From UHGV virus genome UHGV-0175639: a DNA stretch of 64,000 bases, one strand, 5' to 3'. Positions 8,686 through 60,704 of the stretch are shown here, piece after piece. The DNA comes from a virus. Below the pieces are notes generated by a model. That model was not told the DNA's origin, made no database searches, and worked only from the letters and a program-made list of their open reading frames with translations. How positions within the stretch are numbered: the first letter of the stretch is position 1; each line of letters opens with the position of its first letter. The position numbers were made by a program, and so were the translations under genes.

Positions 8686-8746
8686 GTGTTTTTCTCTTAT
8701 CGTTTAGTAACTACATTCTTACATAAATTAAGTAAGTATTTACCTA

Positions 8747-10432
8747 TCATTTAACGCGTTTGAAAACGTATACGCTGACTGTGATCCCTGTGTCTTCAAA
8801 CTCGTTGGTAAACGACTTCCCTCTGGCATAAACGTAATTATCCATCGTCATCCAGTCCAGTATTGGCGCAGTGCCCGGCAATACTGCTACAAGACGCCCG
8901 CCGACTTTCAGATGCCCCAGCGCAGCCAGCGTGTGCTCTCTATGACGACCAAGCGAGTACGGCGGGTTCATAACGATTTTGTCGAACTGATAACCTGCGT
9001 TGTCCTCAGACCACTTTATGAAGTCGCAGCAAATCGTGTTCGTATACCCTTTTCCACGCAGGATATCAGCGAAGAGAGGTGCGATTTCTATGCAGGTAAC
9101 ATCTTCCAGATCGGCGTTTATATAGGCCAGAAGATCCCCACGTCCGGCTTGAGGCTCCAACAGCTTCTCACCAGGCTTCAATTCAGTGGCTCTTGCAACG
9201 TACTCAGCAATCAAGCGTGGGGTAGGGTAGAACTGGTGTGATTTTGTATCCGGTATTAAACCGGTAGCCACAATCGTATTTAGCGTATGGCCGATGTCAT
9301 ACGGGAACTGCCAGTGCTTTTTCTCCTGCACGCCGCCAATGAAGCTCAGTGTGCGCTCAAGCTCTTCCACCTGCGACTTCTGGAGAGCTGAATCAGAGAA
9401 GTACCATACGCCTTTGTCTTTGCTCAATCGCCCGTCACGAAGCGCAGTGCGAACCGGCACGGAGATCGTCTTCTGGATTAACCCGAACTGCTTTGGTGCC
9501 CGTGTTTTTGGCGCAGTTCGGCATGGCGCGGGGATTGCAGCAGGCATACTGTAAGCCAGCACCTCATTCAACTTCCAGGCCACGTCAGGATGTATTTCAA
9601 AGTGAACGTTGCCGTTCTTGAACATCTTCACGCGCATCAGATTTCCATCGACGTTCATCCAGTCACCGGTCTGGCAGTCGTTTGCCCGATACGCAGCTGA
9701 TAGCACCTCAGCAGTGCGGTTGATGGTAATAAATTCTTTGTGCGCGAAGAAATGAAGCAAGACACGCAGATCGTCGATGTAGTCCTCTTTGCGATAGTTC
9801 ACGCTAACGCTGTCCCGCCAGAAATCAGAAATGCAGTCAGCGATTATCAGACGCTCGCTGAAACCGTTTGTCTTATTTGTCTTGTGCGCAGGACTCAGCG
9901 CCTTAAACAAGCCATACACGCGCTCAGAGAGATATTTGTGCCTGTCATTCAGCAAATTAAGCATCGTGGGTATGACCGTTTCTGCTTTGAACTCCGGTAC
10001 ACCAACGAACTCTTTAACCTTCATCTGGTAGCCGGTTCTGTCAGTTTTGATGACTTCCTGTTTGCCCTCTATAAACTGCTCGCGCCACTCATCTCGACGG
10101 GAAGCTGGCATGATCAGCAAAACGTTAGTCATGTCCGTGACCTTCCTCCAGTACTCGGCCCAAATATTCTGTTTCACCCATTCCAGATCGACTTTATCCA
10201 ACCAACCTCGATTTAAACGCGAGCGATCTTCATCTGGTCGATGGTTTAGTCTCAGCAGGCGATTAATCATGTTGTGGCGTTCGTCGCCATAAACGAAGTC
10301 GTGTACCTGATACATGAAGGCGATCTCTTTCTCGCACTCGGCCACGATTTCGTGGATGACATTCATTTCCTGACGATAGTCGATAGCCGTGTTTGAGCTG
10401 GCATCGTCGATGATGGAAAGGGCTGTATTCAT
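8747..10432 (-). CDS. 561-aa protein with a C-terminal SAM-dependent N6-adenine methyltransferase-like domain
   Basis: C-terminal about 170 aa contain FYPTP, EPQAGRGDL and NPPYS motifs; N-terminal about 380 aa unassigned. Confidence 0.6.
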   Translation of the reverse strand: MNTALSIIDDASSNTAIDYRQEMNVIHEIVAECEKEIAFMYQVHDFVYGDERHNMINRLLRLNHRPDEDRSRLNRGWLDKVDLEWVKQNIWAEYWRKVTDMTNVLLIMPASRRDEWREQFIEGKQEVIKTDRTGYQMKVKEFVGVPEFKAETVIPTMLNLLNDRHKYLSERVYGLFKALSPAHKTNKTNGFSERLIIADCISDFWRDSVSVNYRKEDYIDDLRVLLHFFAHKEFITINRTAEVLSAAYRANDCQTGDWMNVDGNLMRVKMFKNGNVHFEIHPDVAWKLNEVLAYSMPAAIPAPCRTAPKTRAPKQFGLIQKTISVPVRTALRDGRLSKDKGVWYFSDSALQKSQVEELERTLSFIGGVQEKKHWQFPYDIGHTLNTIVATGLIPDTKSHQFYPTPRLIAEYVARATELKPGEKLLEPQAGRGDLLAYINADLEDVTCIEIAPLFADILRGKGYTNTICCDFIKWSEDNAGYQFDKIVMNPPYSLGRHREHTLAALGHLKVGGRLVAVLPGTAPILDWMTMDNYVYARGKSFTNEFEDTGITVSVYVFKRVK

Positions 10433-10573
10433 AATTACACCATTAAATAATTTGTTTTCTGATTGGTGTAATTATCGCAAACTTGAAAAGGCATAAAAGC
10501 TGCATTCATAGGCGTTACAGCAGATTTAAGGCGTAAAAATGGGGGCTTTCGCCCCCTGTCGACTGGTGCAGTA

Positions 10574-11140
10574 TTAGAGTGCGTATTGCGTTTTGTGCGG
10601 TTGCTTATTCAAGTCGTGGCGATGCGTAAGCTCCCGCATCATGTCTTCAAGCCGACTTTTCGTATCATCAAGCTGGTCGGCCATTGCTCCCAAAAGCTGG
10701 CGAACGGCCATTGGATCGTCACTGTTTAGTGATGGCATTTTATATCCCGCTTTAGAAGACATAAGATTGATTGCAGACATCAACATCGTTAGAGAAGACT
10801 TAAGTCCGGCAATTTCACGATCTTTGCTGGCAATAATCGTCTCACTATTGTTACCGTCATGGGTTCCTTGAGTCTCGCTCACCATATCCAAAGTCGCCTG
10901 CAACTTATTAGCGCGCTCTTTTTCGGCAAGATAATGAACACCGAAATGGTGTGCCAAAGCTACAACCTGAGTTGGCTCTTCAAAGGTGGAATTAAAATTA
11001 AGTACTGTAAACAGTCTCTCAAATATAGAAACGTCTTCTGTTCCCCGAACAATGCCTAACATTTTGACAAGTTCATTAGCATCCATTTCTTCGAATAGGG
11101 CGTTTTGTTCATCAGCTATTGCTTTGCATTTCTCGCACAT
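10574..11140 (-). CDS. hypothetical protein, 188 aa
   Basis: ORF with conserved leader and upstream AAACAAnTTGTTT motif. Confidence 0.5.
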   Translation of the reverse strand: MCEKCKAIADEQNALFEEMDANELVKMLGIVRGTEDVSIFERLFTVLNFNSTFEEPTQVVALAHHFGVHYLAEKERANKLQATLDMVSETQGTHDGNNSETIIASKDREIAGLKSSLTMLMSAINLMSSKAGYKMPSLNSDDPMAVRQLLGAMADQLDDTKSRLEDMMRELTHRHDLNKQPHKTQYAL

Positions 11141-11437
11141 GTGTTTTCCTTAATGCTTAAACAAGTTGTTTTCTTATTGGCTTTATTGTGATGTGGCATA
11201 AAAGGGGAGCAAGCTAAACGTAAAGGTGCAAACTCTCTATTTCGGTCAACGAAACACAAGGGCCAAATGGCCCTTGTCATTAACACTTTGCTTTACGAAC
11301 TAACGGATAAGCGAAGTAGATCGCCAAACCAATGAGGACGCCATCAGAAATGACAGACATCATCTTTCCCGTAAAATCCACCAACACCGCCATCACCAGA
11401 AGAGCAATGACGATCACAAGCCGGAATCTCTCAAGCA

Positions 11438-11863
11438 TTAGAGATAAGCATCCAGTGACAACTGAAGCGCCTGGGCGATCTTTTTCAGTGCCTGCTCTTC
11501 TTGTTCACCAATGCCGTCCTGATCGGCAATATCAAGGCACAGACACAGAACATCGACCGCCTCTGGAGTACCCGCAATATCAGACAGCTCACGAATAGCC
11601 TGTGCATTAGCAGAACGAGGGGACGCTTCGTAACGAGCACGGATATTGGCGCTCATTTGGGCAATTTCACCAGCAAACGGAGAAAACGCAGGCAGAGCTG
11701 CAATTGTCTTCTCAAGAATGGCAATTTCTTTTGCGTCACATGTGCCGTCGGCATAGGAGATCATGTACGCGCCCCACACGGTGGCCTCAACCGCATCACG
11801 GTTCTCCATTTTTTTGACTTCGATAACAGCTTTACGAGTTTTCTTTTTGAAGAAACCTAACAT
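11438..11863 (-). CDS. TerB-like domain protein
   Basis: 141 aa; acidic helical pattern resembling the TerB fold, from memory; weak. Confidence 0.4.
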   Translation of the reverse strand: MLGFFKKKTRKAVIEVKKMENRDAVEATVWGAYMISYADGTCDAKEIAILEKTIAALPAFSPFAGEIAQMSANIRARYEASPRSANAQAIRELSDIAGTPEAVDVLCLCLDIADQDGIGEQEEQALKKIAQALQLSLDAYL

Positions 11864-11956
11864 GTGTTTTCCTTTTATTATTTGTCAAAACAAGTTGTTT
11901 TCTAATTACATAAATTGCTTACGCAAAGATGGTCAATGCATATGCACTAACAGCCG

Positions 11957-12145
11957 TCAGAAATAACCAAGTACCGAACCGACTGGAAAAACAAAAATCC
12001 CAACTACACGAGCCAAGGTCATGCCAGCCTGAAACTGGAGATCGCCAGAGCAAACAAGTTTTATAATGTTCGATACCCAACCGGCGGCCATGAGGGCAAG
12101 AATTGCCAGCCAAATTTTTCCAAAGTGATTTGAAAACCAGTTCAT
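11957..12145 (-). CDS. small membrane protein, 62 aa
   Basis: Two hydrophobic segments. Confidence 0.35.
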   Translation of the reverse strand: MNWFSNHFGKIWLAILALMAAGWVSNIIKLVCSGDLQFQAGMTLARVVGIFVFPVGSVLGYF

Positions 12146-12154
12146 ACAACCGCC

Positions 12155-12649: not shown

Positions 12650-12797
12650 GTGGACTCCATCCAGTGTCAGAAAGAGTTGCGGCTGGCGATTGCCAGCCGC
12701 CTTTCTCGTTCCATCCTGGAACTGTGTCTTACCGACACATTGTCATCCTGACGCCGATAAGATACATGATTTAAAATGATAGGTAAACACTTACTTA

Positions 12798-13388
12798 CTA
12801 TTTGTTATAAACAAAACCAATATCTTTCTTGTGAGGCATATCTGCTGCTGAAAAAGCTGCGATCTTCGCGAGTCGATCACATATTTCATTTTCACGATGC
12901 CCGGCGTGACCTTTAACCCACTTCCAGCGAACATTATGTCGACTTGCGGCCTCATCCAGACGCTTCCACAGATCAACATTCTTTACCGGTTTTTTGTCAG
13001 AAGTCATCCATCCATTGCGTTTCCACCATTTCATCCACTGTGTCATGCCGTTTTTCAGATACTGGCTATCAGAGTGCAAAATAACGTTGCATGGATATTT
13101 CAAACGCTCCAGCCCGATAAGTGCCCCCATCATCTCCATGCGGTTATTGGTGGTGCTATGAAAACCATCTGAGAACTCGCGTTCCTCACCACGATACTGG
13201 AGAACGATACCGTAACCGCCCGGGCCACCCGGATTTTTAAGGCAAGAGCCATCACTAAAGATTTTCACGGTTTTAAGCTGGGGATTGAACTCTACGACAG
13301 GCGTTGTGGGATTGGTGCGGGGAGAATTTTTGTTTTTGTCTTTTTTGCGAGTTTTTGCTTGCGATCGGGCTGGTGTCTTCGTCGTCAT
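12798..13388 (-). CDS. rnhA: ribonuclease H
   Basis: [17 protein letters not shown]...[10 protein letters not shown]...HSDSQY...KGHAGH matches RNase HI; start set at MTTKT with a GGAG RBS. Confidence 0.85.
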
Positions 13389-13970
13389 ATAAACTCCTGA
13401 ATCAAGCGCCGCGCCGATTTTTCCTCGCGCGTGCGCACACGCGTGCGTGTTAATAATTATTAAAATAAACAAATTACTTCCCAGAACAGGTTTTTATAAA
13501 CCTGAACTGAACGAACGAAGTGAGTGAAGTTCACCTCGAACGAAGTGAGAGGTTGTCTTTTCAGGTAATACTCTCCCAGGGAGGTGAGTATAAAAATCTC
13601 TCACCAACCTGGTCGTTTCATAACCTGAAAAGTTATGGTCTAAGTCTACTGCCAGCTTAGACTTGGGAAGTTATGGATGACAGCACCCCAGAACCGAGAT
13701 CTTCCCACACTTTATGAAGGGGAGTACTGGATTCAACCTCTCGAAACACCCCAGACTCGACAATCATAAAGTGACCCTTGTCTCTGCTCACTTTGGTTCC
13801 CCCTTCCCCGACACCTAAACGGCACCAGTTCTACGCTGGTAGTGAGCTTTTTTAAACCTGACGCCAGTGACGCTTACCCCCACCCATCAGGTCGAGTCTC
13901 CAGTCTACGACTGGAAACTATCAGATCTTAGCACTTACAATTCACTTTATGAATAGTTTGTACTTATCTA

Positions 13971-14225
13971 TCATTGTGATTGATTATTTTCTCTACCATG
14001 TAGTTGAACATTCAAGGCAAACACCTCATTGATCAACTCACCTAAAAGCTGTTCAACAAGTTCGCGATGCTCGCCAAGATGCAAGCACTTAATTGCCCAT
14101 TCGTACAAGTTGAAAGCCTGCTCACGATCTTTCATCATTTCACGAGCCTGGGCCAGAAAATCGCTCTCTACGAGCGCAACGACATTAGTCGGGTATGACA
14201 TGTTGGTTTCCTTAAAGTGGTTCAT
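13971..14225 (-). CDS. hypothetical protein, 84 aa
   Basis: ORF only. Confidence 0.4.
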   Translation of the reverse strand: MNHFKETNMSYPTNVVALVESDFLAQAREMMKDREQAFNLYEWAIKCLHLGEHRELVEQLLGELINEVFALNVQLHGRENNQSQ

Positions 14226-14980: not shown

Positions 14981-15163
14981 CTTCTTTCTCGATAGGTAAG
15001 TATATACCTATTTTTGCATTTGATTTTATGTCTGGCAATCAAATAAAACGCGCCAGAAATGCAAACGAGAAGCTCTCTGGCGCGTTTTTGTGGTGCTGGG
15101 TATGTGATTGGCTTACCCAGTACTATAAAGCTCTCTATGGGCTTTATTTTAAGTAGGGGAACG

Positions 15164-17826: not shown

Positions 17827-18302
17827 TACGACCTTCTGTATACGATCTGCGAAAAGCCAGGCTCTTCCTCGCTGGCTCGTTGGGTAAAAACTGTTTCAAC
17901 AGGCACAAAGCCTAAGTTACGCATCATGCTTGTCGGGAAGAATGCATCGGCGTTTGGTACATCAACGCCGATGTGAGAGAGCCAAATCTCTTCAACATGC
18001 GGCATGAATAGCGAGTAAATTTGTTCCCCGCCAATCACCCACACAGGCTCTGGTAATCGTAGCACATCATCCACACCAGCAGGGTAGAATCCATTTGGTA
18101 CAAAGCCATGCGAGCGCGTCAAAACGAGGTTATGACGCTCTGGAAGAGGGCGTTTGAGACTTTCCATCGTTTTACGCCCCATAACGACAGTGGCGTTTTT
18201 GGTGAGTCTCTTAAATAGCTTCAGATCGGTAGAACAACGCCAGGGCAGTTCGTTCGCTATGCCGATCTCATAGTTACGGCCAACAGCAGCTATCATCTTC
18301 AT
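17826..18302 (-). CDS. folA: dihydrofolate reductase
   Basis: IAAVGRNYEIG...LPW...VVMGRKT...GGEQIY pattern matches FolA. Confidence 0.85.
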   Translation of the reverse strand: MKMIAAVGRNYEIGIANELPWRCSTDLKLFKRLTKNATVVMGRKTMESLKRPLPERHNLVLTRSHGFVPNGFYPAGVDDVLRLPEPVWVIGGEQIYSLFMPHVEEIWLSHIGVDVPNADAFFPTSMMRNLGFVPVETVFTQRASEEEPGFSQIVYRRS

Positions 18303-18712
18303 ATGCTCACCTCATAGATGACCGGTCTATGATGAGAGTCAGCTAAAGCGGCACGGAGTCGAGGATCGTGCACCAGCGCAGCGATAAGCAGATCGCCTTT
18401 ATGCTCCGCTAATGTGCGCTTAATATGCTTCTCATAACTAGTGCTATTCGGTACGAGATGAAGCCAGTCGTAATCAACACCAAAATCTTTCAGCCATCGT
18501 TTAGTGGGCGCTTCAAGAGTTTCAGAGCGGCTACTGATAAGCACCACTTCAGCCCCTGAGCGAGCAAAACCACGCAACATACGGCTGGTGGGGAAAATGA
18601 GTTCATCACCGGCAATGAATTGGCCTGCATCCGAGTCAGATACAGATTTACGATGGCTGGTATTTGCCAGCACACCTTCAATTTCGCATAAGACATACAT
18701 ACCTCTTGCCAT
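18299..18712 (-). CDS. HAD-like hydrolase-fold protein with atypical motif I (possible nucleotidase)
   Basis: Start set at MARGMYVLCEIEG; HAD-like spacing of motifs but first Asp replaced; weak. Confidence 0.35.
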   Translation of the reverse strand: MARGMYVLCEIEGVLANTSHRKSVSDSDAGQFIAGDELIFPTSRMLRGFARSGAEVVLISSRSETLEAPTKRWLKDFGVDYDWLHLVPNSTSYEKHIKRTLAEHKGDLLIAALVHDPRLRAALADSHHRPVIYEVSI

Positions 18713-18713: not shown

Positions 18714-19844
18714 TCACACCGCCACTGGAACCTTGATCCACGGTAGAGGGGCATAGCCAAGAATAAGAATCTCGTCCCATTTGAAATCATCCAGCTCAGA
18801 CCATTCATTAGGGAATATAACGACCGGATCTGAATGCTCTGGAGCCTGTCGTTGCATTAGCTCACACACACCTTCCATGTGGTTGTTGTACAAATGCACG
18901 TCAAAGCCAAAATGCACAAATGCACCGGCCATGTGACCCGTAATCTTCGCGAGAAAATGAGTGAGAATGCCATAGCCAGCAATATTGAATGGCATACCAA
19001 CAAAAGTGTCTACGCTACGCTGTACGAGGCAGGAGTTGAGGATGCGTTTGGGGATTCCAAGTTCATCCAGTTCAGTTTCAGTAACACTGCCGTCCATCTC
19101 CAGATCGTATAGCATCTTGGTGTAGATAGACTCATAACCGAGGCGACTGTGTTGAAGACCAATGTCAGTTGCCATCGTTAAACGGGTTTCAAAATCAAGC
19201 TCACGACTCCACAAAGAGAAGACAAAGTGGCAAGGTGGCAGTTTCATATCCTCAAGCTCGCCTACGTTCCATGCGTTAAGCATGATGCGACGATCGGTAG
19301 GGTTCGTGCGCAGTGTATCGACAATACGCTGTAGCTGATCGATTTCACGGGACAGCACTACGCGATCTTCACTGATACCCAGGTATCCCTCGACTTTGTA
19401 CCCGCGTTCACGGAAAGTATCGATCTTGCTCAGATATTCACTATGGCTCACGATGCGGGTATCTTCCCATCGACGCCACTGCTTACCGTAAACCGGCCCC
19501 AAATCGCCATTCTCATCGGCCCATGCATCCCAAATCTTAACGCCGTTATCCTTGAGAAATTGGATGTTGCCCGTGCCTTTCAGATACCACTCAAGTTCGA
19601 CAAGTAGTGGCTTAAGATTTACCGCCTTTCCAGAAATAAGCGGCACAGTCCCACCAGTAAGCATGTAGTAAGAGGGAACGTAGCAGGTGCTTAAAGTACC
19701 AGTGCCTGTGCGATCATCAGCCTGCACGCCGCTTTTAAGCACCGTCTCAATAACTTTTGCATACGATGCGTTTGTTACCTGACCGTTCGTATGCTCACGA
19801 TTCAAAAGGAGTGACACAAAAACCTCACAAAGATAAGTAATCAC
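18714..19844 (-). CDS. thyA: thymidylate synthase
   Basis: DRTGTGTLS, DRRIMLNAWN and LPPCH motifs; contiguous ORF. Confidence 0.85.
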   Translation of the reverse strand: MITYLCEVFVSLLLNREHTNGQVTNASYAKVIETVLKSGVQADDRTGTGTLSTCYVPSYYMLTGGTVPLISGKAVNLKPLLVELEWYLKGTGNIQFLKDNGVKIWDAWADENGDLGPVYGKQWRRWEDTRIVSHSEYLSKIDTFRERGYKVEGYLGISEDRVVLSREIDQLQRIVDTLRTNPTDRRIMLNAWNVGELEDMKLPPCHFVFSLWSRELDFETRLTMATDIGLQHSRLGYESIYTKMLYDLEMDGSVTETELDELGIPKRILNSCLVQRSVDTFVGMPFNIAGYGILTHFLAKITGHMAGAFVHFGFDVHLYNNHMEGVCELMQRQAPEHSDPVVIFPNEWSELDDFKWDEILILGYAPLPWIKVPVAV

Positions 19845-19988
19845 TTATTCATTGTGTGAGTTTACATTTATTGAGAGAACAAGACCAGATAGATAAAAAA
19901 ATGGTGGCCACAGGCCACCAAAAACGAATAGTTGTTTCAGAAATTTAACGCGCCAACGCAATATACACAGATAGATAACTACCTACAA

Positions 19989-22184: not shown

Positions 22185-24500
22185 TCAGATTTTGCAGGCT
22201 CCGTCGCACTCATCTTCTGGCTCGACGGCTACAGCTTGCGCCAGTGGATTCTGCGGTTCGTCGTCATCACGCTTTCCTGCACCATCTCTGGTGTTGTGGT
22301 AGTAAAGCGTTTTAACTCCCATCTTGTAGGCGAGAAGCAAATCTGACAGTAGCGTCATCATTGGGACTTTATCGCCTTCAAAGCGAGAAGGGTCATAGTT
22401 GGTATTGGCCGAAATAGCCTGGTCAAAGAACTTCTGGATGATCGCCACCTTTGTCAGATAGCCGCGGTTGTCCGGCATATCCCACAGGTATTCATACTGT
22501 TCCTTCAGTTTTTCAAACTCAGGCACGACCATCTTGACGATGCCGTCCTTAGAAGATTTCACTGACACCGGGCCACGAGGCGGTTCGATGCCGTTGGTGG
22601 AATTAGTGATCTGGCTGGAAGTCTCGCATGGCATTTGTGCCGTCAGTGTGGAGTTGCGAAGGCCGTATTTTGCAATACGTTCACGCAGTTCTTCCCACGG
22701 CATCTTTAACTCAAAGTTTGTTTCGCCACTTTCGTCTAATGAAGAACGGTAATGGTCGATCGGCAACTGACCAATTGCGTATTTGGTCTGCTCAAACCAG
22801 TCACACTCACCTTTTGCTTCGGCAAGTCGGCAGCTGGCATCAAGAAGGTAATACTGGATAGCTTCGAACGTTTCATGCACCAGTTTATTGCCAGCGGTAT
22901 CAGAATAACGAACGCCATTCTTTGCCAGGTAATAAGCAAAGTTGGTTACACCAATTCCCAAGCTACGACGAGCTTTGGCAGGCACTTCGGCTGCCTCCAT
23001 CGGATAGTCTTGATAATCCAGTAACGAATCCAGTGCAGCAACGGCATAGAACGCCACCTCTTTAAGAGACTCCAGTGAACGGATGGCTCCGAGGTTAAAA
23101 GCGGATAAAGTGCATAGCGCGATCTCACCGTTCGGGTCGTCGGTAAATGCCAGTGGACGGGTGGGTAGGGTGATCTCCATACACAGGTTTGACTGGCGGA
23201 CAGGTGCAAGAGCAGGAATGAAAGCGCCATGCTCATTAATATGATCGACGTTCGCAATATAAATTCGGCCCGTGGACGCTCGTTCCTGCATCAGAGATGA
23301 GAACAGCTCAATGGCAGGTACTGACTTCTTGCGAATTGAATCATCGGCTTCGTATTTATGGTACAGCTTTTCAAACAGCTCCTGGTCTGTGAAGAAGGCT
23401 TCGTACATATCAGGCACATCATGCGGGCTGAACAGAGTGATGTTCTCGCTTCTGACGAGTCGACGGTACATTAGACGGTTACTCATGACGCCGTAATCAA
23501 GATGGCGAACGCGGTTTTCATCAATACCACGGTTATTTTTCACCACCAGCAGACTTTCAACTTCAAGATGCCAGATCGGGTAAAACGCTGTTGCTGCGCC
23601 ACCACGAACACCACCTTGCGAACAAGATTTAACAGCCGTCTGGAAATGCTTCAGGAATGGAATAACTCCGGTATGGGTGGCTTCACCATTGCGGATCTCG
23701 CTGCCCAGCGCACGGATACGGCCAAAACCAATACCAATTCCAGCACGACGTGAAACGTAGTCGATAATTGCGGCTGAAGCTGCACTAATCCCTTTCAGAC
23801 TATCGCCAGACTCAATCAGCACACAACTGGAGAACTGACGGGTTGGAGTACGGACGCCGGCCATGATTGGTGTGGGCAGAGACAGTTTGAACGTACTTGT
23901 AACGTCATAGAAACCTTTGACCATCTCCATACGTGTTTTGCCAGCGCAGTCGTCTTCCCAATTCTGGAACAGACACATGCCTACCAGCATATAGATATGT
24001 TGCGGCCCCTCATGAATCTCACCAGTAACACGGTTTTGAACGAGGTATTTGCTTTGCAACTGCACCGTAGCTGCATAGCCAAAAAGATCGTCACGTTTCG
24101 GCTTAATGTAATTGCCGAGTTCTTCGATCTCTTCAAACGAATAATGTGTCAGCAAATCCTTGTCATAAACGCCCTTGTTAACGTTCTTGACAATGTGTTG
24201 GTAGAAGTTCGGATAGTCGTAACGACCGAAGGCATCTTTGCGGATTTTAAAAATGTTCAGGCGGGCAGCCACCTGTGAGTAATTTGGTGCTTCTGGTGAG
24301 ATCAAATCAGCGGCAGATTTAACCAAAGCCTCATGCAACTGGCTGGTGGTAATCCCATCAAAAATGCTGGCCGCAGCTCCCATTGCTACAGCGGATGCGC
24401 TTACACCACGAATGCCTTCTACGCCATACATTACGACGCGGTTGTATTTTTCTTCGGATAACGGCTCTGTTTGGCCGTTACGTTTTACGATGCTTATCAT
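22185..24500 (-). CDS. nrdA: ribonucleotide reductase class Ia alpha subunit
   Basis: 771 aa, colinear with E. coli NrdA including the C-terminal CxxxxC tail. Confidence 0.95.
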   Translation of the reverse strand: MISIVKRNGQTEPLSEEKYNRVVMYGVEGIRGVSASAVAMGAAASIFDGITTSQLHEALVKSAADLISPEAPNYSQVAARLNIFKIRKDAFGRYDYPNFYQHIVKNVNKGVYDKDLLTHYSFEEIEELGNYIKPKRDDLFGYAATVQLQSKYLVQNRVTGEIHEGPQHIYMLVGMCLFQNWEDDCAGKTRMEMVKGFYDVTSTFKLSLPTPIMAGVRTPTRQFSSCVLIESGDSLKGISAASAAIIDYVSRRAGIGIGFGRIRALGSEIRNGEATHTGVIPFLKHFQTAVKSCSQGGVRGGAATAFYPIWHLEVESLLVVKNNRGIDENRVRHLDYGVMSNRLMYRRLVRSENITLFSPHDVPDMYEAFFTDQELFEKLYHKYEADDSIRKKSVPAIELFSSLMQERASTGRIYIANVDHINEHGAFIPALAPVRQSNLCMEITLPTRPLAFTDDPNGEIALCTLSAFNLGAIRSLESLKEVAFYAVAALDSLLDYQDYPMEAAEVPAKARRSLGIGVTNFAYYLAKNGVRYSDTAGNKLVHETFEAIQYYLLDASCRLAEAKGECDWFEQTKYAIGQLPIDHYRSSLDESGETNFELKMPWEELRERIAKYGLRNSTLTAQMPCETSSQITNSTNGIEPPRGPVSVKSSKDGIVKMVVPEFEKLKEQYEYLWDMPDNRGYLTKVAIIQKFFDQAISANTNYDPSRFEGDKVPMMTLLSDLLLAYKMGVKTLYYHNTRDGAGKRDDDEPQNPLAQAVAVEPEDECDGACKI

Positions 24501-24573
24501 GTATCACCAAATAAAGAGGGCCACTAAATATAGTGGCCCATGTTAATAGATAAGCACTTACCTATCAATGAAA

Positions 24574-29147: not shown

Positions 29148-29438
29148 ATCTTAAGCTTGCTCGAGAGGTGAGCAACCAACACAGCACGGCACAGAAGAAC
29201 ATCAACAGGCATAGTATTACAAAATAAATAGGTAAGTGAATACCTACCAAAATTGTTGAATGGATTGCTTACAAGGCGGCTAGAGTTTCATTGAAGTGCT
29301 TAGATGTATATGGTAGGCAAAAGTCTCATCGTTACATATGAATGAACTATCTCATGGGTCATGTATCATTTGATATTTTTATTATCAACAATTACCGTAT
29401 AAGAGGAATTTTCCAAATTGAAAAAGGATTGATTATCA

Positions 29439-33040: not shown

Positions 33041-33216
33041 GCTGCCACCTCTTTGATTACATCAAATGCTGAATTAAATACGAGCACGATAGCCAAAGCG
33101 TTTATGACTACGTCGTGCACCGGGGAAAAGACTTTACGAATGACACCAGTGAAAATGCAGTCGATGACAAAAGCTATTGAAACGATGAGTAACAAGTATT
33201 CAATAAAAATCTTCAT
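33037..33216 (-). CDS. small membrane protein, 59 aa
   Basis: MKIFIEYLLLIVSIAFVIDCIF...; ATGA overlap with the downstream gene. Confidence 0.35.
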   Translation of the reverse strand: MKIFIEYLLLIVSIAFVIDCIFTGVIRKVFSPVHDVVINALAIVLVFNSAFDVIKEVAA

Positions 33217-33255
33217 GATAGGTAGATACTAACTTATATAAACTTTACTGTAAAC

Positions 33256-35138: not shown

Positions 35139-35230
35139 GTGTTTTCCTATGTGGTTGTTATGCGAAAATAATAAGTAAGTACTTATATATTTTCAAGAGA
35201 TAAAAAAGGCGTCCTGTGGACGCCTTGTGT

Positions 35231-38606: not shown

Positions 38607-38723
38607 GTGTTTCTCCTTGTTGTGATTTGGCCGATGGCGCTATGCGCGTTGGGCTTTCGTTCATTCGTGGCTCTTTCGAGCTGTTAAATAATAGATCAGT
38701 ACATACTTATTATCTATCAAAAA

Positions 38724-42200: not shown

Positions 42201-42799
42201 GCGCTGGCGACTTTCATCGCTCGGACGTTAATCTGGTCGTAGAATGGGGTAGGGTGCGGATAAACCACACTATAGAAGTTGTCTTTCCCGCCCGCTGTAA
42301 TCAGTGAGCTTATGATTTTTGCAAAATCGTTGCGTTGGAACACGCTACCGATGTCGGAAGTGAGCAGGATGATGTTGCCTTTGGCATATGTAGAAACCAA
42401 CTTTTCGAGCGAGAGACGCGGTACAAAGTAGAACTGTTCTCGTGTGTTGGCCACCGTCATTAGTTCGCAGATGTCGCGATATCCTTGCTCATTTTTAATT
42501 AGAGCGGTAAACGAGTAGTTACGTCCCCGCTCTAATGATTCCATACATCTCATAGATTCTTTAGCAAGTTTAGCCCGGTGCTCGTATGTGGGATCATCAA
42601 CAATGTTTAGTTTCACACCACAAATAACCGCCATGTCGTCACCAGCGGCACGTTGTAGTGGAATAACGCTCGCAATATTCATGCTATCTGCTGAAATTAC
42701 AGCGGTGTAGCCAGCTTCTCTGGCAATCTTCACCGCGTTTTCTGCTTTTAGAGCCGACTCCCCAAGTGAGAAGTCAGTTCGAACCATCAGTGCCTTCAT
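39281..42799 (-). CDS. dnaE: DNA polymerase III alpha subunit
   Basis: 1172 aa; N-terminal PHP domain, polymerase core and fingers colinear with DnaE. Confidence 0.9.
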   Translation of the reverse strand: MKALMVRTDFSLGESALKAENAVKIAREAGYTAVISADSMNIASVIPLQRAAGDDMAVICGVKLNIVDDPTYEHRAKLAKESMRCMESLERGRNYSFTALIKNEQGYRDICELMTVANTREQFYFVPRLSLEKLVSTYAKGNIILLTSDIGSVFQRNDFAKIISSLITAGGKDNFYSVVYPHPTPFYDQINVRAMKVASALKIEPVAFYPAYYESIDDADIKDIAHMVTNNIKIDQPHRLRIPHQRDNAINGRRHLLEALKAFSVRMDVPVTAAMASTTQDSIIDACTWRWHELPPALPKMADDEPATLMKLAVAGLRKRLTTKEFGYTPPASENRVYVERLKYEMDTLTRLGFCGYFLMVRDLMNHSRETGIPVGPGRGSSAGSLEAWCIGITNVDPIRHGLLFERFINPERLDLPDADLDFSQARRHEVIEYLNERYGEDYVAGIPNFTYLGAASALRDTARIYGVESADMAVSKELKNVEDDSLPLEELREQLASLDKYATKYPDAFNAACKLQSLMRGFGRHAAGMIVAGVPLTERTPVERRGDARCIAFDKRYCEAMGLIKLDVLGLATLDLLDSAKRYIKENTGEDINLDAISLEDRKVLDGFAAGYTQGVFQLESGPMRKLLKDLGGGIEPMSFKTVVATTALFRPGPIQSGMLDDYVSVAKGFMTPESLHPVLDELTAETNGVILYQEQTMNATRLLAGFTMAEADGVRKAIGKKDMEKMKSMGEKFIVQAQAGWIDVELEDGTTQRIHRAEHFKCEDGTLKTVEEALEYGAKLPINAVRVTASHPGLSEMKAKEIWTAFEKNGAYQFNKSHSVAYSLISYQSMWLKTHYPAEFFAAALTILGEDKHQGLVKDALTYGIRVLPPDVNVSSNRIEIRTLEDGSQVLYAPFSAVKGCSENGCQAIMRAREKVGGKFESLAQFEEAVEKRACNSRVRESLQKVGAFASIEPGSLPATDPERLRDQAELMGNLVIDAVKASRPFEMNPKRSAEINVLMTRMAAEMGLGDELIRPSIGIKPKIMIILDNANGNDARTGYFMENGYDDFKAKLLTAGDLRMGDLYVTGVCKKVKDKEKDYTKDEIGQFTDFMREEINLVRPTYVLTCGSRATSLFNNKNKPSDLVGRKEYLPDLDVTVFYGFNPNILYFRPEEGERLEAILADVAETIKT

Positions 42800-44215: not shown

Positions 44216-44310
44216 GCGTTTTTCCTTTGTTCTCTAATGAGCGTTCAACTTCTTATATAAATATATCATTATATATCGTAAGTGGTTACTTATCGTTAAG
44301 GCTGTTTTGT

Positions 44311-46730: not shown

Positions 46731-46980
46731 TCAATCAATCCATTCTAACTTATACTATGGTAAGGAATACTACTAAAATTTATATCAATACTGAATACAT
46801 TCATATCATATGCAAGTTAATTTTCTTACCTGTTTTGGGCTAATTTTTCTCCGTGCAATGGCCTTTAACCGGTCTTTTAAGTGCCTATCGAAAAAATGAT
46901 AATAGCTTTACAACCCTAACCTTTGATGTAATATCGGTAAGCACTTACCAGAGAGAATTGAACGCGCAAAGGTTGTAACA

Positions 46981-47367
46981 ATGTCTGACAACAAGATTGA
47001 ATTTATAGAAAGTCGCTATGCTGCTTTTATCGCAGGGCTGATTGAATCCTCACCTATGAGTCAGGCCCAAATAGCCAGACTTATTGGTTATAAAAATGCC
47101 AACAACCTTTCTTTAATTAAAAGTGGCAAAATTCCTTTGCCTATCGATAAGGTTCGTCCGTTGGCGCTGGCGCTGGGTATTGAGCCAAGTCGTCTTATGA
47201 TGATGGTGCTGGAAGAACGCCAACCTGAACTCGCAGCATTTTTATACAAAGAAGGCACCGCTCCTCTTAACGAGGACGAAAAACAGGTTCTTGCTGCATA
47301 TAACGAGCGATTCGGTAAAGAGAAAGGCGCATCACAAAAGGTTGTTGAGGCCATAAAGTCTCTATGA
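46981..47367 (+). CDS. HTH (Cro/C1-type) transcriptional regulator
   Basis: SQAQIARLIGYKNANNLSLIKSG helix-turn-helix; convergent with the recombinase. Confidence 0.6.
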   Translation: MSDNKIEFIESRYAAFIAGLIESSPMSQAQIARLIGYKNANNLSLIKSGKIPLPIDKVRPLALALGIEPSRLMMMVLEERQPELAAFLYKEGTAPLNEDEKQVLAAYNERFGKEKGASQKVVEAIKSL

Positions 47368-48465
47368 AAAATTTACACGAATAAGCTCTGTTGATAGACG
47401 ATCTCCCTTGAATTTGTGGTCAATTTCGTCTAAATCCGGTTGCTCTACGATTGATGCGATGTACGTCGAGAAACTTTCTAAGGCGTCTCGCATCTCGTCC
47501 ATATAATCGTGCCGGTCGTAGACTCGATCTATCCCCTCAAGACTGTGGTTCATGATTTTGCGTGATACCTCCTGGCTTATGCCTAATGCTGGGAAGTAAC
47601 TACGCGCAGTACGGCGCAAGTCTCGGGGTGTAAATGGCTCAAGCTCCATCAGTTCTGGTCGTTCCAGGATACGACGTAATGCCTGGGCTATTGCCACTTT
47701 AGACATAGGAAGGTCTTTCCCGATTTTTTTATTCGAAGGCACGAGCCACTGGCTGCCTTTACCGTATTCGAACAACTCTTCAATACATGTGCGCATTAAT
47801 GTGCTTAAAGGCAGCGAATGCTCACGGGCAGATTTGTTCCTCTTGCCTTGATTCCAAACCCCACGCTTAAGATTGAACTCACTTTTTTTAGCCCGCAGTA
47901 CTTCGTCAGGTCGTCTTGCGGATACAAGACACAGCCTGGCCGCCCATTTTGTACCAGCGCACACATTGAAGTAGTCCCATATATTCCAGAACACCCATAC
48001 CTCTGCGTCGGTCAGCTTCCGCTCGCGAGGTGTGGGCTTTGCGCCACCGGCAACTTTGTTTAGTGACATATCGTTTAACGGTGACACGTCTATCATCCCC
48101 TGGAAGGCGCACCAGCTAAGGAACTGCTTCATCAGAGAGAAAACGCGGCGGCCCATAACAATTTTGCCATCCAGTATTAGTGGGTTGACCAGTTGGTTCA
48201 CCATGAACCTATTAATGTCACTTACTTTTACATCGGCAATGTGCGGCAAAACATGTATCAAAATACAATGAACAGCGATCTCTGGCCGACGTCTTGTTAT
48301 CAGCAGAGATAAGCGAGTGAATAACATGAATGCGTCCGAGAATCTCATGTCATTGCTGACCTGCGAGATCATAACGGCCTGCATTTGAGATGCTCTTTCG
48401 AGATACTCAATCGCCTCTTTTGAGGTGTTCTCCGCAGCGCGTGCTCTGTCAAAGCTATTTTTCAT
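47362..48465 (-). CDS. tyrosine site-specific recombinase
   Basis: Conserved Arg and LRRT box and C-terminal VYDRHDY tyrosine region. Confidence 0.8.
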   Translation of the reverse strand: MKNSFDRARAAENTSKEAIEYLERASQMQAVMISQVSNDMRFSDAFMLFTRLSLLITRRRPEIAVHCILIHVLPHIADVKVSDINRFMVNQLVNPLILDGKIVMGRRVFSLMKQFLSWCAFQGMIDVSPLNDMSLNKVAGGAKPTPRERKLTDAEVWVFWNIWDYFNVCAGTKWAARLCLVSARRPDEVLRAKKSEFNLKRGVWNQGKRNKSAREHSLPLSTLMRTCIEELFEYGKGSQWLVPSNKKIGKDLPMSKVAIAQALRRILERPELMELEPFTPRDLRRTARSYFPALGISQEVSRKIMNHSLEGIDRVYDRHDYMDEMRDALESFSTYIASIVEQPDLDEIDHKFKGDRLSTELIRVNFS

Positions 48466-48921: not shown

Positions 48922-49095
48922 TGTTACCTCATAGAATTGATATGCAACTTTACTTACAAAGAAGATAGGTATGTGCATACTTATCTTTGCAGTCTGCATT
49001 ATAAAGCTATTAAAGCCTCGATCAATCTATTAATTAAGGCATTGTTTGGTTAACATTAGCCTAATAATTTATAGTTAGTAGAGTGAAATACATAC

Positions 49096-50549: not shown

Positions 50550-50636
50550 CTGGCGGAGAGTAATGGAATCGAACCATCATCGTTTGCACAATGGAACGGT
50601 TTTCAAGACCGCTTGAGCACCATGCTCCCTACTCTC
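50550..50636 (-). tRNA. tRNA-Ser (anticodon UGA), long variable arm, CCA encoded
   Basis: Manual fold: acceptor GGAGAGU/ACUCUCC, anticodon loop CUUGAAA, T-loop GGTTCGATTCC. Confidence 0.65.
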
Positions 50637-50827
50637 CAGCTATTGTGATGGTCGGTACTGAACTCCGACACAGGGTTGTAGCAAGCCCCGCAAAGCGCGC
50701 ACTACTGTAGTTGCGGCACATCAGCCTGTGCATTCATCACAACGGTAAGAGCACTGGTCTGACTCTATCGATTTACGGCCTTGTGGGTCAGTATCGCCGA
50801 TTCGCCCAATGCTCTTACCTGTTGTGT

Positions 50828-50903
50828 TGGTGCCGGTTAACGGACTTGAACCGCTGGCCATTCGCTTACAAAGCGACTGCTCTACCAACTGAGCTAAACC
50901 GGC
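50828..50903 (-). tRNA. tRNA-Thr (anticodon UGU), CCA encoded
   Basis: Manual fold: acceptor GCCGGUU/AACCGGC, D-arm AGCTCAGTTGGTAGAGC, anticodon loop UUUGUAA. Confidence 0.6.
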
Positions 50904-50907
50904 AATT

Positions 50908-50994
50908 TGGTGGGGAGTGATGGAGTCGAACCACCCGAGTCGCCATGACAGTAGATTTACAGTCTACACCGCTACCTCTACGGACTAACTCCCC
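50908..50994 (-). tRNA. tRNA-Tyr (anticodon GUA), long variable arm, CCA encoded
   Basis: Manual fold: acceptor GGGGAGU/ACUCCCC, anticodon stem-loop GUAGA-CUGUAAA-UCUAC. Confidence 0.6.
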
Positions 50995-50999
50995 TAAAT

Positions 51000-51074
51000 T
51001 GGCGATGGTGGGTGGATTCGAACCACCGACCAGTTGGTTAACAGCCAACTGCTCTACCGCTGAGCTACACCATC
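51000..51074 (-). tRNA. tRNA-Asn (anticodon GUU), CCA encoded
   Basis: Manual fold: acceptor GAUGGUG/CACCAUC, anticodon stem-loop GUUGG-CUGUUAA-CCAAC, T-loop GGTTCGAATCC. Confidence 0.65.
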
Positions 51075-51852
51075 AATTCAGCACTGCCAGTATTTATTAC
51101 TCAACAGTGCCAATCGCGACGGTTTAGTTTCTGCCAGGAAACGCACCGCTACTTGCACTTTTCGTTAGTGCCAGACGCTTTCGACTTCGCTCAATAGTAG
51201 AAGGCAAAATCTTTAAGTAGATGATGTTTCTGAGGACAGCACCTACTTTGTAATTTATACTATGTGATGTATGGAATCATTTGTTGTGAAAACAGGCACC
51301 AATGGCAACAGTGGTTAAACCTACACAACAATCCCGTCTTCACAACGTTGAGGCCACTACTCCGATTGAATGTTTGCCCAACATGTTACATATCAACGTT
51401 CGCCGGTATCTCTGTGAATAGAACCTTAGAATTGATAAAAATGTAATGGCCTCAACGTTGTGTGCTGGCTAACCATACCAGCCGGGCTACGTCGCCGCTT
51501 TTTAACCCAGTATAAACGACATAATTGAACAAAATGACGTAACAGGATGGGCGGTCAGTGGCTAAGAATCCGGGAGTCATATGGAGTTGAAAATATACCA
51601 ACCGCCCATTCTGTTACTTCATCGGAGGGAACATGAATGTTCCCTCCTGCGTTCTGCAATCACACTCGCTCAGTGTGTCCCATTTCGGTAACGAGGCTGG
51701 AAACTGACCTCGCTGGTGTTTGGCTTATTAGGCTACTGCCAGATAGACTTCTTCGTTTGCACTTGTATTTAAGTTCAAACAGTCGCGTCTCAACGAAAAC
51801 AAAGTCATCTTATACACAAAAGATAAGTAAGTAAATACTTATCAATATGTTT

Positions 51853-54452: not shown

Positions 54453-54519
54453 AATTACCGCCAGAAATAATCTTGTGCTTACCTATCATTGTTTGCGTAA
54501 AAAACGACACACAGAGAGC

Positions 54520-55296: not shown

Positions 55297-55421
55297 ACCA
55301 ACTCCTAGCTAACAGATGAAAGTATTCTTACAAAAAACTAAGTATGTATCTACTTATCATTTTAGGCGCAATAGTTCCCTATACGAAGATGCCGGGCTTA
55401 TAGTCTGCCCGGCATTCACCA

Positions 55422-55835: not shown

Positions 55836-56068
55836 GTTGGCTTCCCTTTATTTATATTTATCGCAGGTATTAGTTAATCAAAACACGAGCAGTGCCACAA
55901 TAATTAAATGGCGTACTATTTCTTATGGTTATTAGTTTCCTAGTAACTTTACCGACCATAAACTAAATCAACAAAGCTGACATATTAACTAAATTTAAGT
56001 ACCCTTTTTCGCACACTTGACGCTTGCCGCGTCTAAACTGTTCATCCTATATCAACAGAACAAAAAAT

Positions 56069-58387: not shown

Positions 58388-58468
58388 GTGTTTTTCTTTT
58401 GTGGTTTGGCAAAAGAAAAGTTGTTTCACCAATGAATCAAGCGTGGAGGTGTTCTCCACGCTTATTTT

Positions 58469-59809
58469 TTAGGTAACGTCTAAGATTCGCTCAATGAAGC
58501 GCATTTGTTCGAGGTTTTGTTTAACGCGAATGCTGATCCCTCCCTGCTGGTTACGTGAACCAGCAAAGTAGAGACGAGCCTCTCCTTTCGCTTCTTCTTC
58601 TTCGGTTTTGTTGATCGTTATTACCAGGTCAGCAATACGTACTTTTTCGAAGTTGTCGGCAGCCTGCATCATTGTGGCATCTTCTGTCGCGCCACCTTCA
58701 CGGTTTGTCTGCGATGCCGTAATCCCAGCAACGTTATGCTTGTCATAAAGAGCACGTAAATCGGTGTAGATACTACGAATGTTGGCGCGATCATCACGAA
58801 GGTCATAACTGGCACGCATCAAATCTGCGTAGTCGACAACAACCATGTCAGGCACCATGCCGTTGGCTTTCATGCTGTTAAGCATACGGTCCAGATCTGC
58901 CGGTGACATACTTCCTGACGGACGCTCAACCACCCACAAACTACCAATCCCCTTCGTGGCTCCCAACTCTGCCAACTTACGATGAACCTCATCGCGCCGT
59001 TCCACCAGCTTGGACATTTCTGTCTCCGACAATCTTGCATCAAAACGGTCGGATAAAATGGTGGTGTGAACCTCCAGCGAGAGATACAGAACATTGTAGC
59101 CAGCAAGCGTTGCGTTTATGGAAAACTCACCCATTGCGGTCGATTTGCCGGATTTAGCGAACCCCATGAAGAGCACCATTTCACGCTTCGCCCAGCCTTT
59201 TTGGTACAGCAACCTATCGAGCAGAGGGAGTCCAGTTGTAATGCTGTTTGGCACATACTCCTCTGAAGCCTCATATTCACGCGCTTTCAATCGCTCACTT
59301 GCGGAGGTGTAGTAGTCATAGATTCCGGTCGCTTCGTTCGAGCCTATCTGCTGAACCTTGGCCATGATTGCCATCGCCCCCTGAAAGTCGCCCTTCTCTT
59401 TCAGTTCAGCAGCTTTAATCAGAGCATCATCAAACGCTACACTTTTTGCGAATGTGGATACCTGGTCAACCATGTACGTGGTATCAGACAATTTTTCTGC
59501 AAGGATGCGCTTAAACGCAGCAACAACATCCGGGAAGAGTTCCTCACGGATGGTCTTATCGCGTTTCGCGCGCTTAAGCATATCCAGAATCGCAGATGAA
59601 GAAGGCGCGCTCTTGTACATACGGTAATAGCCCGAAACCATATTAACCAATATGGCATTGGCCGCATTGGCAAATTGGCTAGGCACAACCAGATCTCCCG
59701 CACGAGTAAGAAACTCGTGATCACGACAAAAATATGCCGTCAGTCTGTTCTGGAAATCTTCATCAAACTCTTCGGACAGCCCGCGTCCTGTATGGCAAAG
59801 TTCGGTCAT
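58469..59809 (-). CDS. DnaB-like replicative helicase
   Basis: RecA-fold Walker A GFAKSGKST and Walker B VVVDYADL. Confidence 0.8.
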   Translation of the reverse strand: MTELCHTGRGLSEEFDEDFQNRLTAYFCRDHEFLTRAGDLVVPSQFANAANAILVNMVSGYYRMYKSAPSSSAILDMLKRAKRDKTIREELFPDVVAAFKRILAEKLSDTTYMVDQVSTFAKSVAFDDALIKAAELKEKGDFQGAMAIMAKVQQIGSNEATGIYDYYTSASERLKAREYEASEEYVPNSITTGLPLLDRLLYQKGWAKREMVLFMGFAKSGKSTAMGEFSINATLAGYNVLYLSLEVHTTILSDRFDARLSETEMSKLVERRDEVHRKLAELGATKGIGSLWVVERPSGSMSPADLDRMLNSMKANGMVPDMVVVDYADLMRASYDLRDDRANIRSIYTDLRALYDKHNVAGITASQTNREGGATEDATMMQAADNFEKVRIADLVITINKTEEEEAKGEARLYFAGSRNQQGGISIRVKQNLEQMRFIERILDVT

Positions 59810-59852
59810 GTGCTTTCCTTTGTTTTTTAAACAAATTGTTTTCTAGTATTAG

Positions 59853-60602
59853 TTAATTAGATAGGGGATCAATAAACCGCCGTGCTTCTTCCAGTTCTTC
59901 TGGAAAGTGGGCGGAAATAAGGCGCTCTGGAACGATTTCCATTAGCCAGATAGCAGAGAAAATTGCGCGTATGCGCTTGCTGCGGGGGATGATGCGCAAA
60001 CGCTCCAGAATCCACTCAAAATAGCTTTCCTGAATCGGGTTGAACTGCATGTCTCCCATATGCTTAAAGCTAACCAGAGAGTCATCCAGACGGGTTGTTG
60101 CGCGTCTGGATAATTTCTCTTCGAATATCTCAACCAGTTCTGGCTGCCATAAATGCTGTGGGCGCGGCAACTTGTCCCACAGACGCCGTGCAGCTGCGGA
60201 AAGAACCGTGGAGATAAAGTAGTCGTATGAACAGCAATAGCGATCAGCAAACTGGCGTGCTTTCCATAGCGACGTTTTATTGGCAGTCGACAACTCCTGA
60301 TAAGGCAGGCGTTTTAACCCGGTGGTGAACGGAGCTGTTTCAAAGTGTTCGCGACCGTGCGTCAGCATGATATTTGAGTACTGACGTTTGTACGCCTCCG
60401 TAAACAGACAGGTGGCCATGAGAGGATGCATATCGCGGTAATCAAACCACTTCGTCTCGAAGAGTTCAGCCTCGTCTTTGCAGCGCGACAAACCAATGTT
60501 TTCAGCGACCCACTTGTCCATAACAGCGGTATTCCACTCTGTCATGAAGTCGTACTGGTCGTTGTCAATGGTATCAAAAAAGATTTGGCTCATGTGGCTC
60601 AC
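59853..60602 (-). CDS. hypothetical protein, 249 aa
   Basis: ORF upstream of the helicase; helicase-loader role is only a positional guess. Confidence 0.45.
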   Translation of the reverse strand: MSHMSQIFFDTIDNDQYDFMTEWNTAVMDKWVAENIGLSRCKDEAELFETKWFDYRDMHPLMATCLFTEAYKRQYSNIMLTHGREHFETAPFTTGLKRLPYQELSTANKTSLWKARQFADRYCCSYDYFISTVLSAAARRLWDKLPRPQHLWQPELVEIFEEKLSRRATTRLDDSLVSFKHMGDMQFNPIQESYFEWILERLRIIPRSKRIRAIFSAIWLMEIVPERLISAHFPEELEEARRFIDPLSN

Positions 60603-60704
60603 CAGATAGGTAGTTACTTACTTATTGCAATGAGCGGATGATAGCGACTGGTGGCAGTTTTTGGAAGTGGAAACGGAAGGGAATGTGTCTGGGAAGTTGG
60701 CATA

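Follow-up and report, generated by a model that had tools for sequence, protein, structure and literature searches.

A conserved palindrome dispersed between the operons of an SSU5-like phage-plasmid, and its possible role as a repressor operator

What reads the short palindrome that recurs between the operons of UHGV virus genome UHGV-0175639? The 64-kb stretch that was analysed (hereafter the window) is part of an SSU5-like phage-plasmid of Escherichia coli. At 97-99% identity it matches Escherichia phage Cyrano (pLF82), phage CMS-2020a and many E. coli plasmids, and its identity to Salmonella phage SSU5 is ~78%. The half of the element that lies in the window is that of replication, recombination and nucleotide metabolism, with dnaE, nrdAB, thyX, recA-like and sbcCD-like genes and genes for a helicase, a primase and a ligase. 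It also encodes a RepB-type replication initiator, an integrase with an adjoining helix-turn-helix (HTH) regulator, and a tRNA cluster, and the - strand holds nearly all of its genes. Here we report that the palindromes are ~18 copies of one repeated 18-26 bp site, which is real, conserved and probably regulatory. The most likely explanation is a genome-wide set of operators for a repressor encoded by the element itself, a proposal to which we assign a probability of about 0.48.

A sequence-only reading of the window had listed 12 imperfect palindromes with a spacer of 4-6 nt. All 12 coordinates fall within 26-bp matches to a single palindrome. When the sites are aligned on their centres, this unit reads ATGATARGTAAG-YR-CTTACYTATCAT at constant spacing, with a core TARGTAAG-YR-CTTACYTA and ATGA/TCAT flanks. 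The variation in spacer length was only apparent and has its source in an internal AAGT repeat. Taken literally, GATAAGTA-N4-6-TACTTATC has just one match in the window, at 51822, and a fixed-spacing 26-bp model was used instead. The sites include six that were absent from the earlier list (marked as new in Table 1).

Sites were scored with a symmetric weight matrix that spans 26 bp and leaves the two central bases unscored, and dinucleotide shuffles served as controls. At a score of at least 24 there are 15 sites, compared with 0.30 in shuffles of the whole window (maximum 2) and 0.09 expected when only the 9.6 kb of intergenic DNA, which is 59% AT, is shuffled. At a score of at least 26 there are 11 sites, compared with 0.03 and 0.00, respectively. 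Similarly, the pattern TA[AG]GTA-N2-12-TAC[CT]TA is matched 13 times in the window and 0.04 times in 200 dinucleotide shuffles. The enrichment is thus clear, also against AT-rich intergenic sequence, the control by which the sequence-only reading had proposed that its palindrome could be refuted. The two central bases, although left unscored by the matrix, are a pyrimidine followed by a purine in all 17 good sites. According to a crude map of long open reading frames (ORFs), 16 of the 18 sites are wholly or mostly outside ORFs; the remaining two (15001 and 48974; sites are named in the text by their centres) fall within ORF calls that seem to be over-extended or spurious.

Table 1. The palindromic sites of the window, with their matrix scores, and two further features that are discussed in the text.
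Feature	Coordinates	Strand	Score	Remarks
Palindrome	8725..8750		29	- strand: ATGATAGGTAAA-TA-CTTACTTAATTT, then TGTAAGAAT (extended -10-like), start codon 8685; SSU5 ortholog 96% identical
Palindrome	12776..12801		29.5	-10-like TGTTATAAA on + side, TATCAT on - side
Palindrome	13949..13974		24	New
Palindrome	14989..15014		27.5	New; end 9 nt before methyltransferase start codon; sigma-70-like TTGCCA-17-TG-AAAAAT (15038-15010, -) runs into site
Palindrome	19830..19855		25.5	Upstream of thyX; terminator 19920-19902 (-) upstream of site
Palindrome	24543..24568		29	Coincides with promoter-like TTGATA-17-TAACAT (-)
Palindrome	29225..29250		26.5	- strand: then TGTAATACT (extended -10-like); upstream of sbcD-like gene
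Palindrome	33215..33240		26	New; coincides with promoter-like TTTATA-16-TATCAT (-); SSU5 ortholog 100% identical
Palindrome	35168..35193		27.5	In spacer of promoter-like TTGAAA-17-TATTAT (35196-35168, -; 10/12 consensus positions); terminator 35226-35206 just upstream
Palindrome	38688..38713		25.5	Coincides with promoter-like TAGATA-17-TATTAT (-)
Palindrome	44271..44296		24.5	Upstream of MoxR/CobS-like ATPase gene; TATAAT just downstream (-)
Palindrome	46930..46955		23.5	New; directly after HTH gene promoter-like TTTACA-16-TAATAT (46907-46934, +)
Palindrome	48962..48987		29	At ~+4 to +29 of promoter-like TTGATC-16-TATAAT (49025-48998, -); upstream of glutaredoxin gene
Palindrome	51820..51845		29	Single exact GATAAGTA-N6-TACTTATC; upstream of tRNA cluster
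Palindrome	54464..54489		23.5	New; weaker, one good arm
Palindrome	55335..55360		26	- strand: then TGTAAGAAT, start codon 55296; SSU5 ortholog 96% identical
Palindrome	60603..60628		27	Ends 10 nt before start codon 60602
Palindrome	60731..60756		23.5	New; weak, doubtful; centre not pyrimidine-purine
Xre-type HTH protein gene	46981..47367	+		WP_001282577.1; Cyrano CYRAN_45, "putative repressor"; single candidate binder encoded in the window
Four tRNA genes	50554-51074	-		Rfam scan

A whole genome carries ~22-25 sites. The complete genomes of Cyrano and SSU5 have ~22 apiece, located between genes of the structural, lysis and replication modules alike. In Cyrano the sites span 2-85 kb, where the lytic modules are located, and the region 85-105 kb is nearly free of them. 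This region includes several genes that were reported to be expressed in the lysogen E. coli LF82, the carrier of Cyrano (PMC9928086). Across 14 orthologous pairs of sites in the window and SSU5, identity is 91% in the 18-bp core and 85% over 26 bp, whereas the 50-nt flanks of the same pairs are just 69-73% identical. The same motif is found in Klebsiella pneumoniae pIncFI-L132, and the intergenic positions that it occupies agree between SSU5 and the Klebsiella plasmids. Klebsiella sp. PO552, with a DnaE that is 59% identical, shares the core but has T for R in the flank, giving ATATGTAWG. The flank base is thus specific to the lineage: R in elements of E. coli, Salmonella and K. pneumoniae, T in PO552, and part of TTA in Acinetobacter. 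In Acinetobacter baumannii p5669 (DnaE 38% identical), AGTAAG-YR-CTTACT occurs at ~30 places, almost all of them intergenic. Several of these match enteric positions: the gaps between terL and the portal gene and between uvsW and parB, the space that separates the capsid gene from its terminator, and the region following the tape-measure gene. That the core is kept from Enterobacterales to Acinetobacter sets it apart from what is usual for phage operators. When viral contigs were scanned for the exact pattern, the matches listed included many contigs of ~100-120 kb with several copies. At the major capsid gene, the order of stop codon, site and terminator is kept in three lineages (Cyrano 5452, SSU5 5480, p5669 84672).

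In four genomes, arms were also exchanged at random among the sites. An arm resembles its own partner no more closely than it does foreign arms (P = 0.35-0.90), and each arm fits the consensus independently. Since the arms do not co-vary, the repeat behaves as a DNA site for a symmetric protein rather than as an RNA hairpin.

How the sites are placed relative to promoters is informative, with the proviso that promoter calls are predictions from matches to the -35/-10 consensus and not mapped starts. On this basis, 13-14 of the 18 sites overlap a consensus-type promoter match, and 9 of ~57 such matches are at most 40 nt from a site (expected, ~1.4). Three geometries are seen. In the first (8737, 29237, 55347 and 51832, plus 12788 on the other strand), the site is followed by a T-rich stretch and an extended -10 element of the type TGnTAAGAAT; its centre is ~30 nt upstream of the predicted start, and the palindrome takes the place of the -35 box. 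In the second (24555, 33227, 35180 and 38700), the core forms the 16-17 bp spacer and the outer flank forms the -10 box. In the third (46942, 48974 and 15001), a -35/-10 pair is located just upstream and the site covers the predicted start. Judging from these arrangements, a protein bound in any of the three geometries would exclude RNA polymerase. The varied geometry is the main reason for preferring an operator, as a positive element should occupy a single, constant position.

The sequence-only reading had proposed a second dispersed regulatory layer, in the form of either a stage-specific promoter element or another repressor site. The layer itself is upheld, and the repressor site is the better fit of the two. 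Specificity for a stage is not borne out: in complete Cyrano, SSU5 and the Acinetobacter relative, the motif precedes replication, nucleotide-metabolism, tRNA, structural and lysis genes alike. The statement that the palindromes are nearly always between a terminator and the next operon leader was also too strong, as a terminator-like hairpin is found within 100 nt upstream of only ~6 of the 18 sites. At 24555, the terminator (24539-24518, - strand) is directly downstream of the site rather than upstream, between it and the nrdA start at 24500, where another promoter would not fit. Transcripts may start inside the terminator hairpin, or a control of read-through may exist.

We suggest that these sites would be bound by a symmetric protein, a dimer or tetramer that the phage-plasmid itself encodes, with one operator at the start of nearly all lytic operons. 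Once bound, the protein would keep RNA polymerase away from the sigma-70-type promoter-like sequences, and the operons for replication, nucleotide metabolism, tRNAs, structural proteins and lysis would be held silent during plasmid life. Loss of the protein, e.g. upon SOS induction, would free all operons together. Both the negative sign of this control and the identity of the protein are inferred.

For the protein there are two candidates. The first, at a probability of roughly one in three, is the Xre-type HTH protein, which is encoded in the window. In the LF82 study it was described as a putative master repressor, with expression ~10-fold above background in the lysogen (PMC9928086). Its gene is a core gene, found in 961 related plasmids of a plasmid collection, including those of Acinetobacter and Yersinia, and the recognition helix of the protein has N39, N41 and S44 unchanged from E. 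coli to Acinetobacter. The gene's own predicted promoter runs into site 46930-46955. The -10 sequence of this promoter, TAATAT, overlaps (at 46926-46933) an opposite-strand GATATT that comes directly after the core, toward the divergent early operon; this may be a back-to-back bidirectional promoter with one shared operator.

The second candidate, with about the same odds, is a protein with a ParB-N domain, encoded beside the packaging genes outside the window. This ParB-like protein is present in all lineages examined, including SSU5, is 36-86% conserved with an invariant HQxMRFKV segment, and matches Spo0J (E = 2.7e-9). In E. coli, K. pneumoniae, PO552 and Acinetobacter, a site is found 15-30 nt before its start codon or overlapping it. 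The ParB_N domain is the only part matched by Pfam, which finds nothing in the C-terminal part; no helix-turn-helix is recognisable in the alignment; and the AlphaFold model is unreliable (mean pLDDT 41). A ribbon-helix-helix fold in the C-terminus was considered and dropped, given the lack of a Pfam match and the low pLDDT.

Other possible readers fared less well. A scan of small ORFs for Arc-type or ribbon-helix-helix domains found none. A phage sigma factor was rejected as reader of the motif: p5669 has a sigma-70 family gene (17882-18547) between those for a MoxR-like ATPase and dnaE, for which no homolog was detected in the E. coli lineage. CYRAN_114 (Cyrano 780-1301) and SSU5_121 (SSU5 46897-47343), which lie outside the window and are annotated as "transcriptional repressor", are FljA-like ("repressor of phase-1 flagellin"; PF03614, E = 1e-80) and hence unlikely binders. 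FljA is an RNA-binding translational repressor. The presence of an FljA-like gene suggests that the element may interfere with flagellin expression of the host.

Several observations weigh against a genome-wide set of operators. The sites at 15001 (also counted under the third geometry) and 60615 are 9-10 nt from a start codon and have no evident promoter, and the same is true of sites between a stop codon and a terminator, e.g. after the capsid gene. Such promoterless sites could act as roadblocks. The region between the HTH gene and the divergent early operon has one site, and not the usual cluster of cI-type operators. SSU5 is devoid of the HTH-integrase module (~42525-42761, corresponding to 46981-48465 of the window), and its sites are at least as good as those of Cyrano. 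Thus, either the HTH protein is not the sole user of the sites or the deletion is recent; loss of the module fits the plaque-forming behaviour of SSU5. Many of the promoter-like sequences have no -35 box and might need activation. Finally, in Acinetobacter a perfect TATAAT immediately follows the core in gene direction, which also fits a promoter-recognition element.

Some of these points bear equally on the alternative of a positive promoter element, in which the palindrome replaces the -35 box and is read by a phage activator or by an adaptor bound to RNA polymerase, in the way that Lpa of P1 reads the -22 box of late promoters. The motif would then mark a phage-specific class of promoters. 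Most sites have no good -35 box, and canonical -35/-10 sigma-70 matches are rarer than in shuffles in three stretches of the window between 8000 and 63999 (17 vs 28.9, 18 vs 25.0 and 22 vs 40.3). In Acinetobacter, TATAAT or TAATAT adjoins the core on the side of the gene, 30-120 nt ahead of start codons. P1 late promoters consist of a AAGTNACTT palindrome 4 nt before a -10 box, with no -35 box, and in the plaque-forming SSU5 all sites are intact even though the HTH repressor is missing. However, the centre of the palindrome differs in position from site to site, being at about -30, within the spacer or beyond the predicted start, and all functional modules are preceded by the motif, so that no particular stage is marked. 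The outer flank TATCAT was rejected as a working -10 box because it is equally good on the antisense side; by our own count in the E. coli lineage, a TATCAT-like flank is on the gene side of 10 of 17 sites and on the opposite side of 12 of 17. With P1 Lpa as the query, tblastn yielded no match below E = 1 in the window, Cyrano, SSU5, two Klebsiella plasmids or the first 50 kb of p5669, and no homolog of the sigma-70 family gene of the Acinetobacter relative is present here. All in all, a positive element seems unlikely.

Also rather unlikely is the use of the palindromes as loading sites for the ParB-N protein, which would silence or counter-silence promoters in the manner of RK2 KorB or Shigella VirB, and might help in plasmid partition as well. 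In favour of loading, this family protein is more conserved than the HTH protein, and in four lineages a site marks the start of its own gene. The distances between sites and promoters vary as they do for KorB operators, and there are two dispersed families of palindromes here, as there are operators for KorA and KorB. The half-site ATGATAG..AAG resembles the Arc operator of P22, ATGATAGAAG, and from its sequence pattern the C-terminal part of the protein could be ribbon-helix-helix. Nevertheless, the protein has neither a recognisable ParB helix-turn-helix nor an assignable C-terminus, as described above, the motif is unlike parS or KorB operators, and the gene is outside the window.

A host protein, the nucleoid-occlusion factor SlmA, was considered because of the sequence of the core. 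The consensus for SlmA is GTGAGTACTCAC, where position 3 can be any purine and position 6 any pyrimidine (PMC3020112), and the core GTAAG-YR-CTTAC obeys this rule. Sites were compared with TAAGTRAGYRCTYACTTA, the inner 18 bp of the 24-bp consensus oligo published for SlmA, with the same two tolerances included. They score 12-16 out of 18, with 14 sites at 14 or higher; 17 places in the window altogether reach 14. On the same scale, the genuine E. coli site SBS17 reaches 15 and SBS12 reaches 14, and nothing in 50 kb of P1 attains 14. Neither a TetR nor an SlmA-like gene is present in the element. Against this, the strict 12-bp rule GTRAGYRCTYAC (G, T, A and G required at positions 1, 2, 4 and 5) has one exact match in the window, at 46937, which is the core GTAAGCACTTAC of site 46930-46955; five more sites have one mismatch.

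More telling is the distribution of the motif. The same core is found at the ~30 sites of A. baumannii p5669, and Acinetobacter has no SlmA ortholog (PMC7481262, PMC13060281). As this relative keeps the core nonetheless, SlmA is not the family-wide factor that maintains the motif. The TetR gene of p5669 is part of a cargo island and has no similarity to SlmA. The flanks vary by lineage, even among elements that share enteric hosts. In addition, 2 of 24 SlmA sites of E. coli are intergenic (PMC5519180), whereas those of the window are almost all intergenic; the chromosome of E. coli has 24-52 SlmA sites, mostly within genes. SlmA as the main binder was dropped on the grounds of core conservation in Acinetobacter, despite a strong sequence fit, and we regard it as very improbable.

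A compromise is conceivable if fairly improbable, namely that in enteric hosts the core of the operator doubles as a binding site for SlmA, which the phage-plasmid would recruit or titrate. If this were true, recruitment of SlmA could couple plasmid position or lytic replication to a block in cell division, or a host protein could be lent to the silencing of phage promoters. The identity of the core with the recognition rule of SlmA thus raises a separate question, that of cross-talk with host cell division.

Last, hairpins acting at the RNA level as processing sites, stabilisers or terminators are almost certainly not the explanation: the palindromes are in transcribed intergenic regions and some are beside terminators, but the arm-shuffling result, the absence of compensatory changes that would keep pairing, the 2-nt centre, the conservation of both arms as sequence and not as pairing partners, and an Rfam scan of the window that matched tRNAs only and none of the palindromes led us to reject them.

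The operator set, if it is one, is not the only dispersed palindrome of the element. Another, TAAGAAAACAA-N-TTGTTTAA, is found at 11159, 11888, 22111, 34029, 59829 and 63857, before genes on the - strand. It is always 15-36 nt upstream of a start codon, and one copy precedes a small ParA gene (63153-63821). This is probably the "first" palindrome implied by the numbering of the sequence-only reading. The translation start region is also unusually uniform, AAGGAAAA(A)CACATG, at many genes, e.g. at 8685, 11140, 11863, 22078, 29147, 35130 and 44215. Among the four tRNAs, one barely attains the threshold of the tRNA-Sec model (47.3 bits, with 47 required) and is annotated as a tRNA-Ser in a near-identical plasmid. 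An IS3-type transposase OrfA (4867-5151; HTH_Tnp_1, E = 2e-19) shows that the present copy of the element has an insertion sequence. The MinD/ParA-like ATPase gene at 252-1352 (+) was reported to be expressed in the LF82 lysogen, and adjoins a gene (1390-1779, -) for a protein with a stand-alone S24 (LexA/UmuD-like) peptidase domain.

SSU5-like phage-plasmids are common in Escherichia, Klebsiella, Salmonella, Enterobacter, Yersinia (pMT1) and Acinetobacter, and some carry resistance genes. We found nothing published on the control of their lytic genes, and no description of the motif in the searchable literature. A single conserved site before nearly every lytic operon provides an experimental handle on the master regulator. 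The list of sites also predicts an operon map, and the motif could be used as a signature for these elements in sequence data.

Known systems resemble the palindromes in different respects. The half-site of the P22 Arc operator (DNA of PDB 1bdt) matches ATGATAG-GT-AAG apart from a 2-bp insertion per half. The Arc operator is 21 bp long and the site here 26 bp, and no Arc-type or ribbon-helix-helix protein was detected in the element. This likeness between short sequences may be due to chance; it would suit a ribbon-helix-helix reader and is offered as a lead only. SlmA binding sites (SBS) are alike in the 12-bp core, in up to 16 of 18 inner oligo positions, in the purine at position 3 and in the pyrimidine-purine centre, but they are mostly located in genes, whereas the sites here are intergenic and have additional conserved flanks that are specific to the lineage.

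Plasmid RK2 has two dispersed families of short palindromes, the operators of KorB (OB) and KorA (OA), at variable distances from promoters, and KorB is a ParB homolog that regulates its own operon. The sequences are unrelated to those described here, and the ParB-like protein differs from KorB in having no recognisable ParB helix-turn-helix. Mycobacteriophage L5 has ~20-30 repressor sites, the stoperators, in short intergenic spaces of early and late operons, and some of them are promoterless. Stoperators are asymmetric 13-mers that are functional in one orientation only, whereas the sites here are palindromic.

The late promoters of P1 are similar in that a short AAG...CTT palindrome is just upstream of a -10-like hexamer and there is no -35 box. 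In P1, AAGTNACTT is followed by 4 nt and the -10 box; in Acinetobacter, AAG-YR-CTTAC is followed directly by TATAAT. The inner spacing is 3 nt in the P1 late box and 2 nt here, and the site here is far longer and not confined to late genes. Six P1 late promoters that were extracted have the 9-bp AAGTNACTT 4 nt upstream of TANNNT, a rule that the palindrome fails (AAG-N2-CTT at variable distance). Identity with the Lpa-dependent late promoter was rejected, given the different box and spacing and the lack of an Lpa homolog.

Functionally, the closest parallel is the C1 network of P1, in which a single repressor controls many operons through many operators that are spread across a ~100-kb phage-plasmid, each overlapping or following a promoter. 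The P1 record annotates C1 operators at ref, mat, ssb, c4, repL, pmgT, lpa, c1 and others. The C1 operator is an asymmetric 17-mer, whereas the site here is an 18-26 bp palindrome. Furthermore, the late structural genes of P1 are controlled separately via Lpa, whereas in the SSU5-like elements the same motif also precedes the structural and lysis genes.

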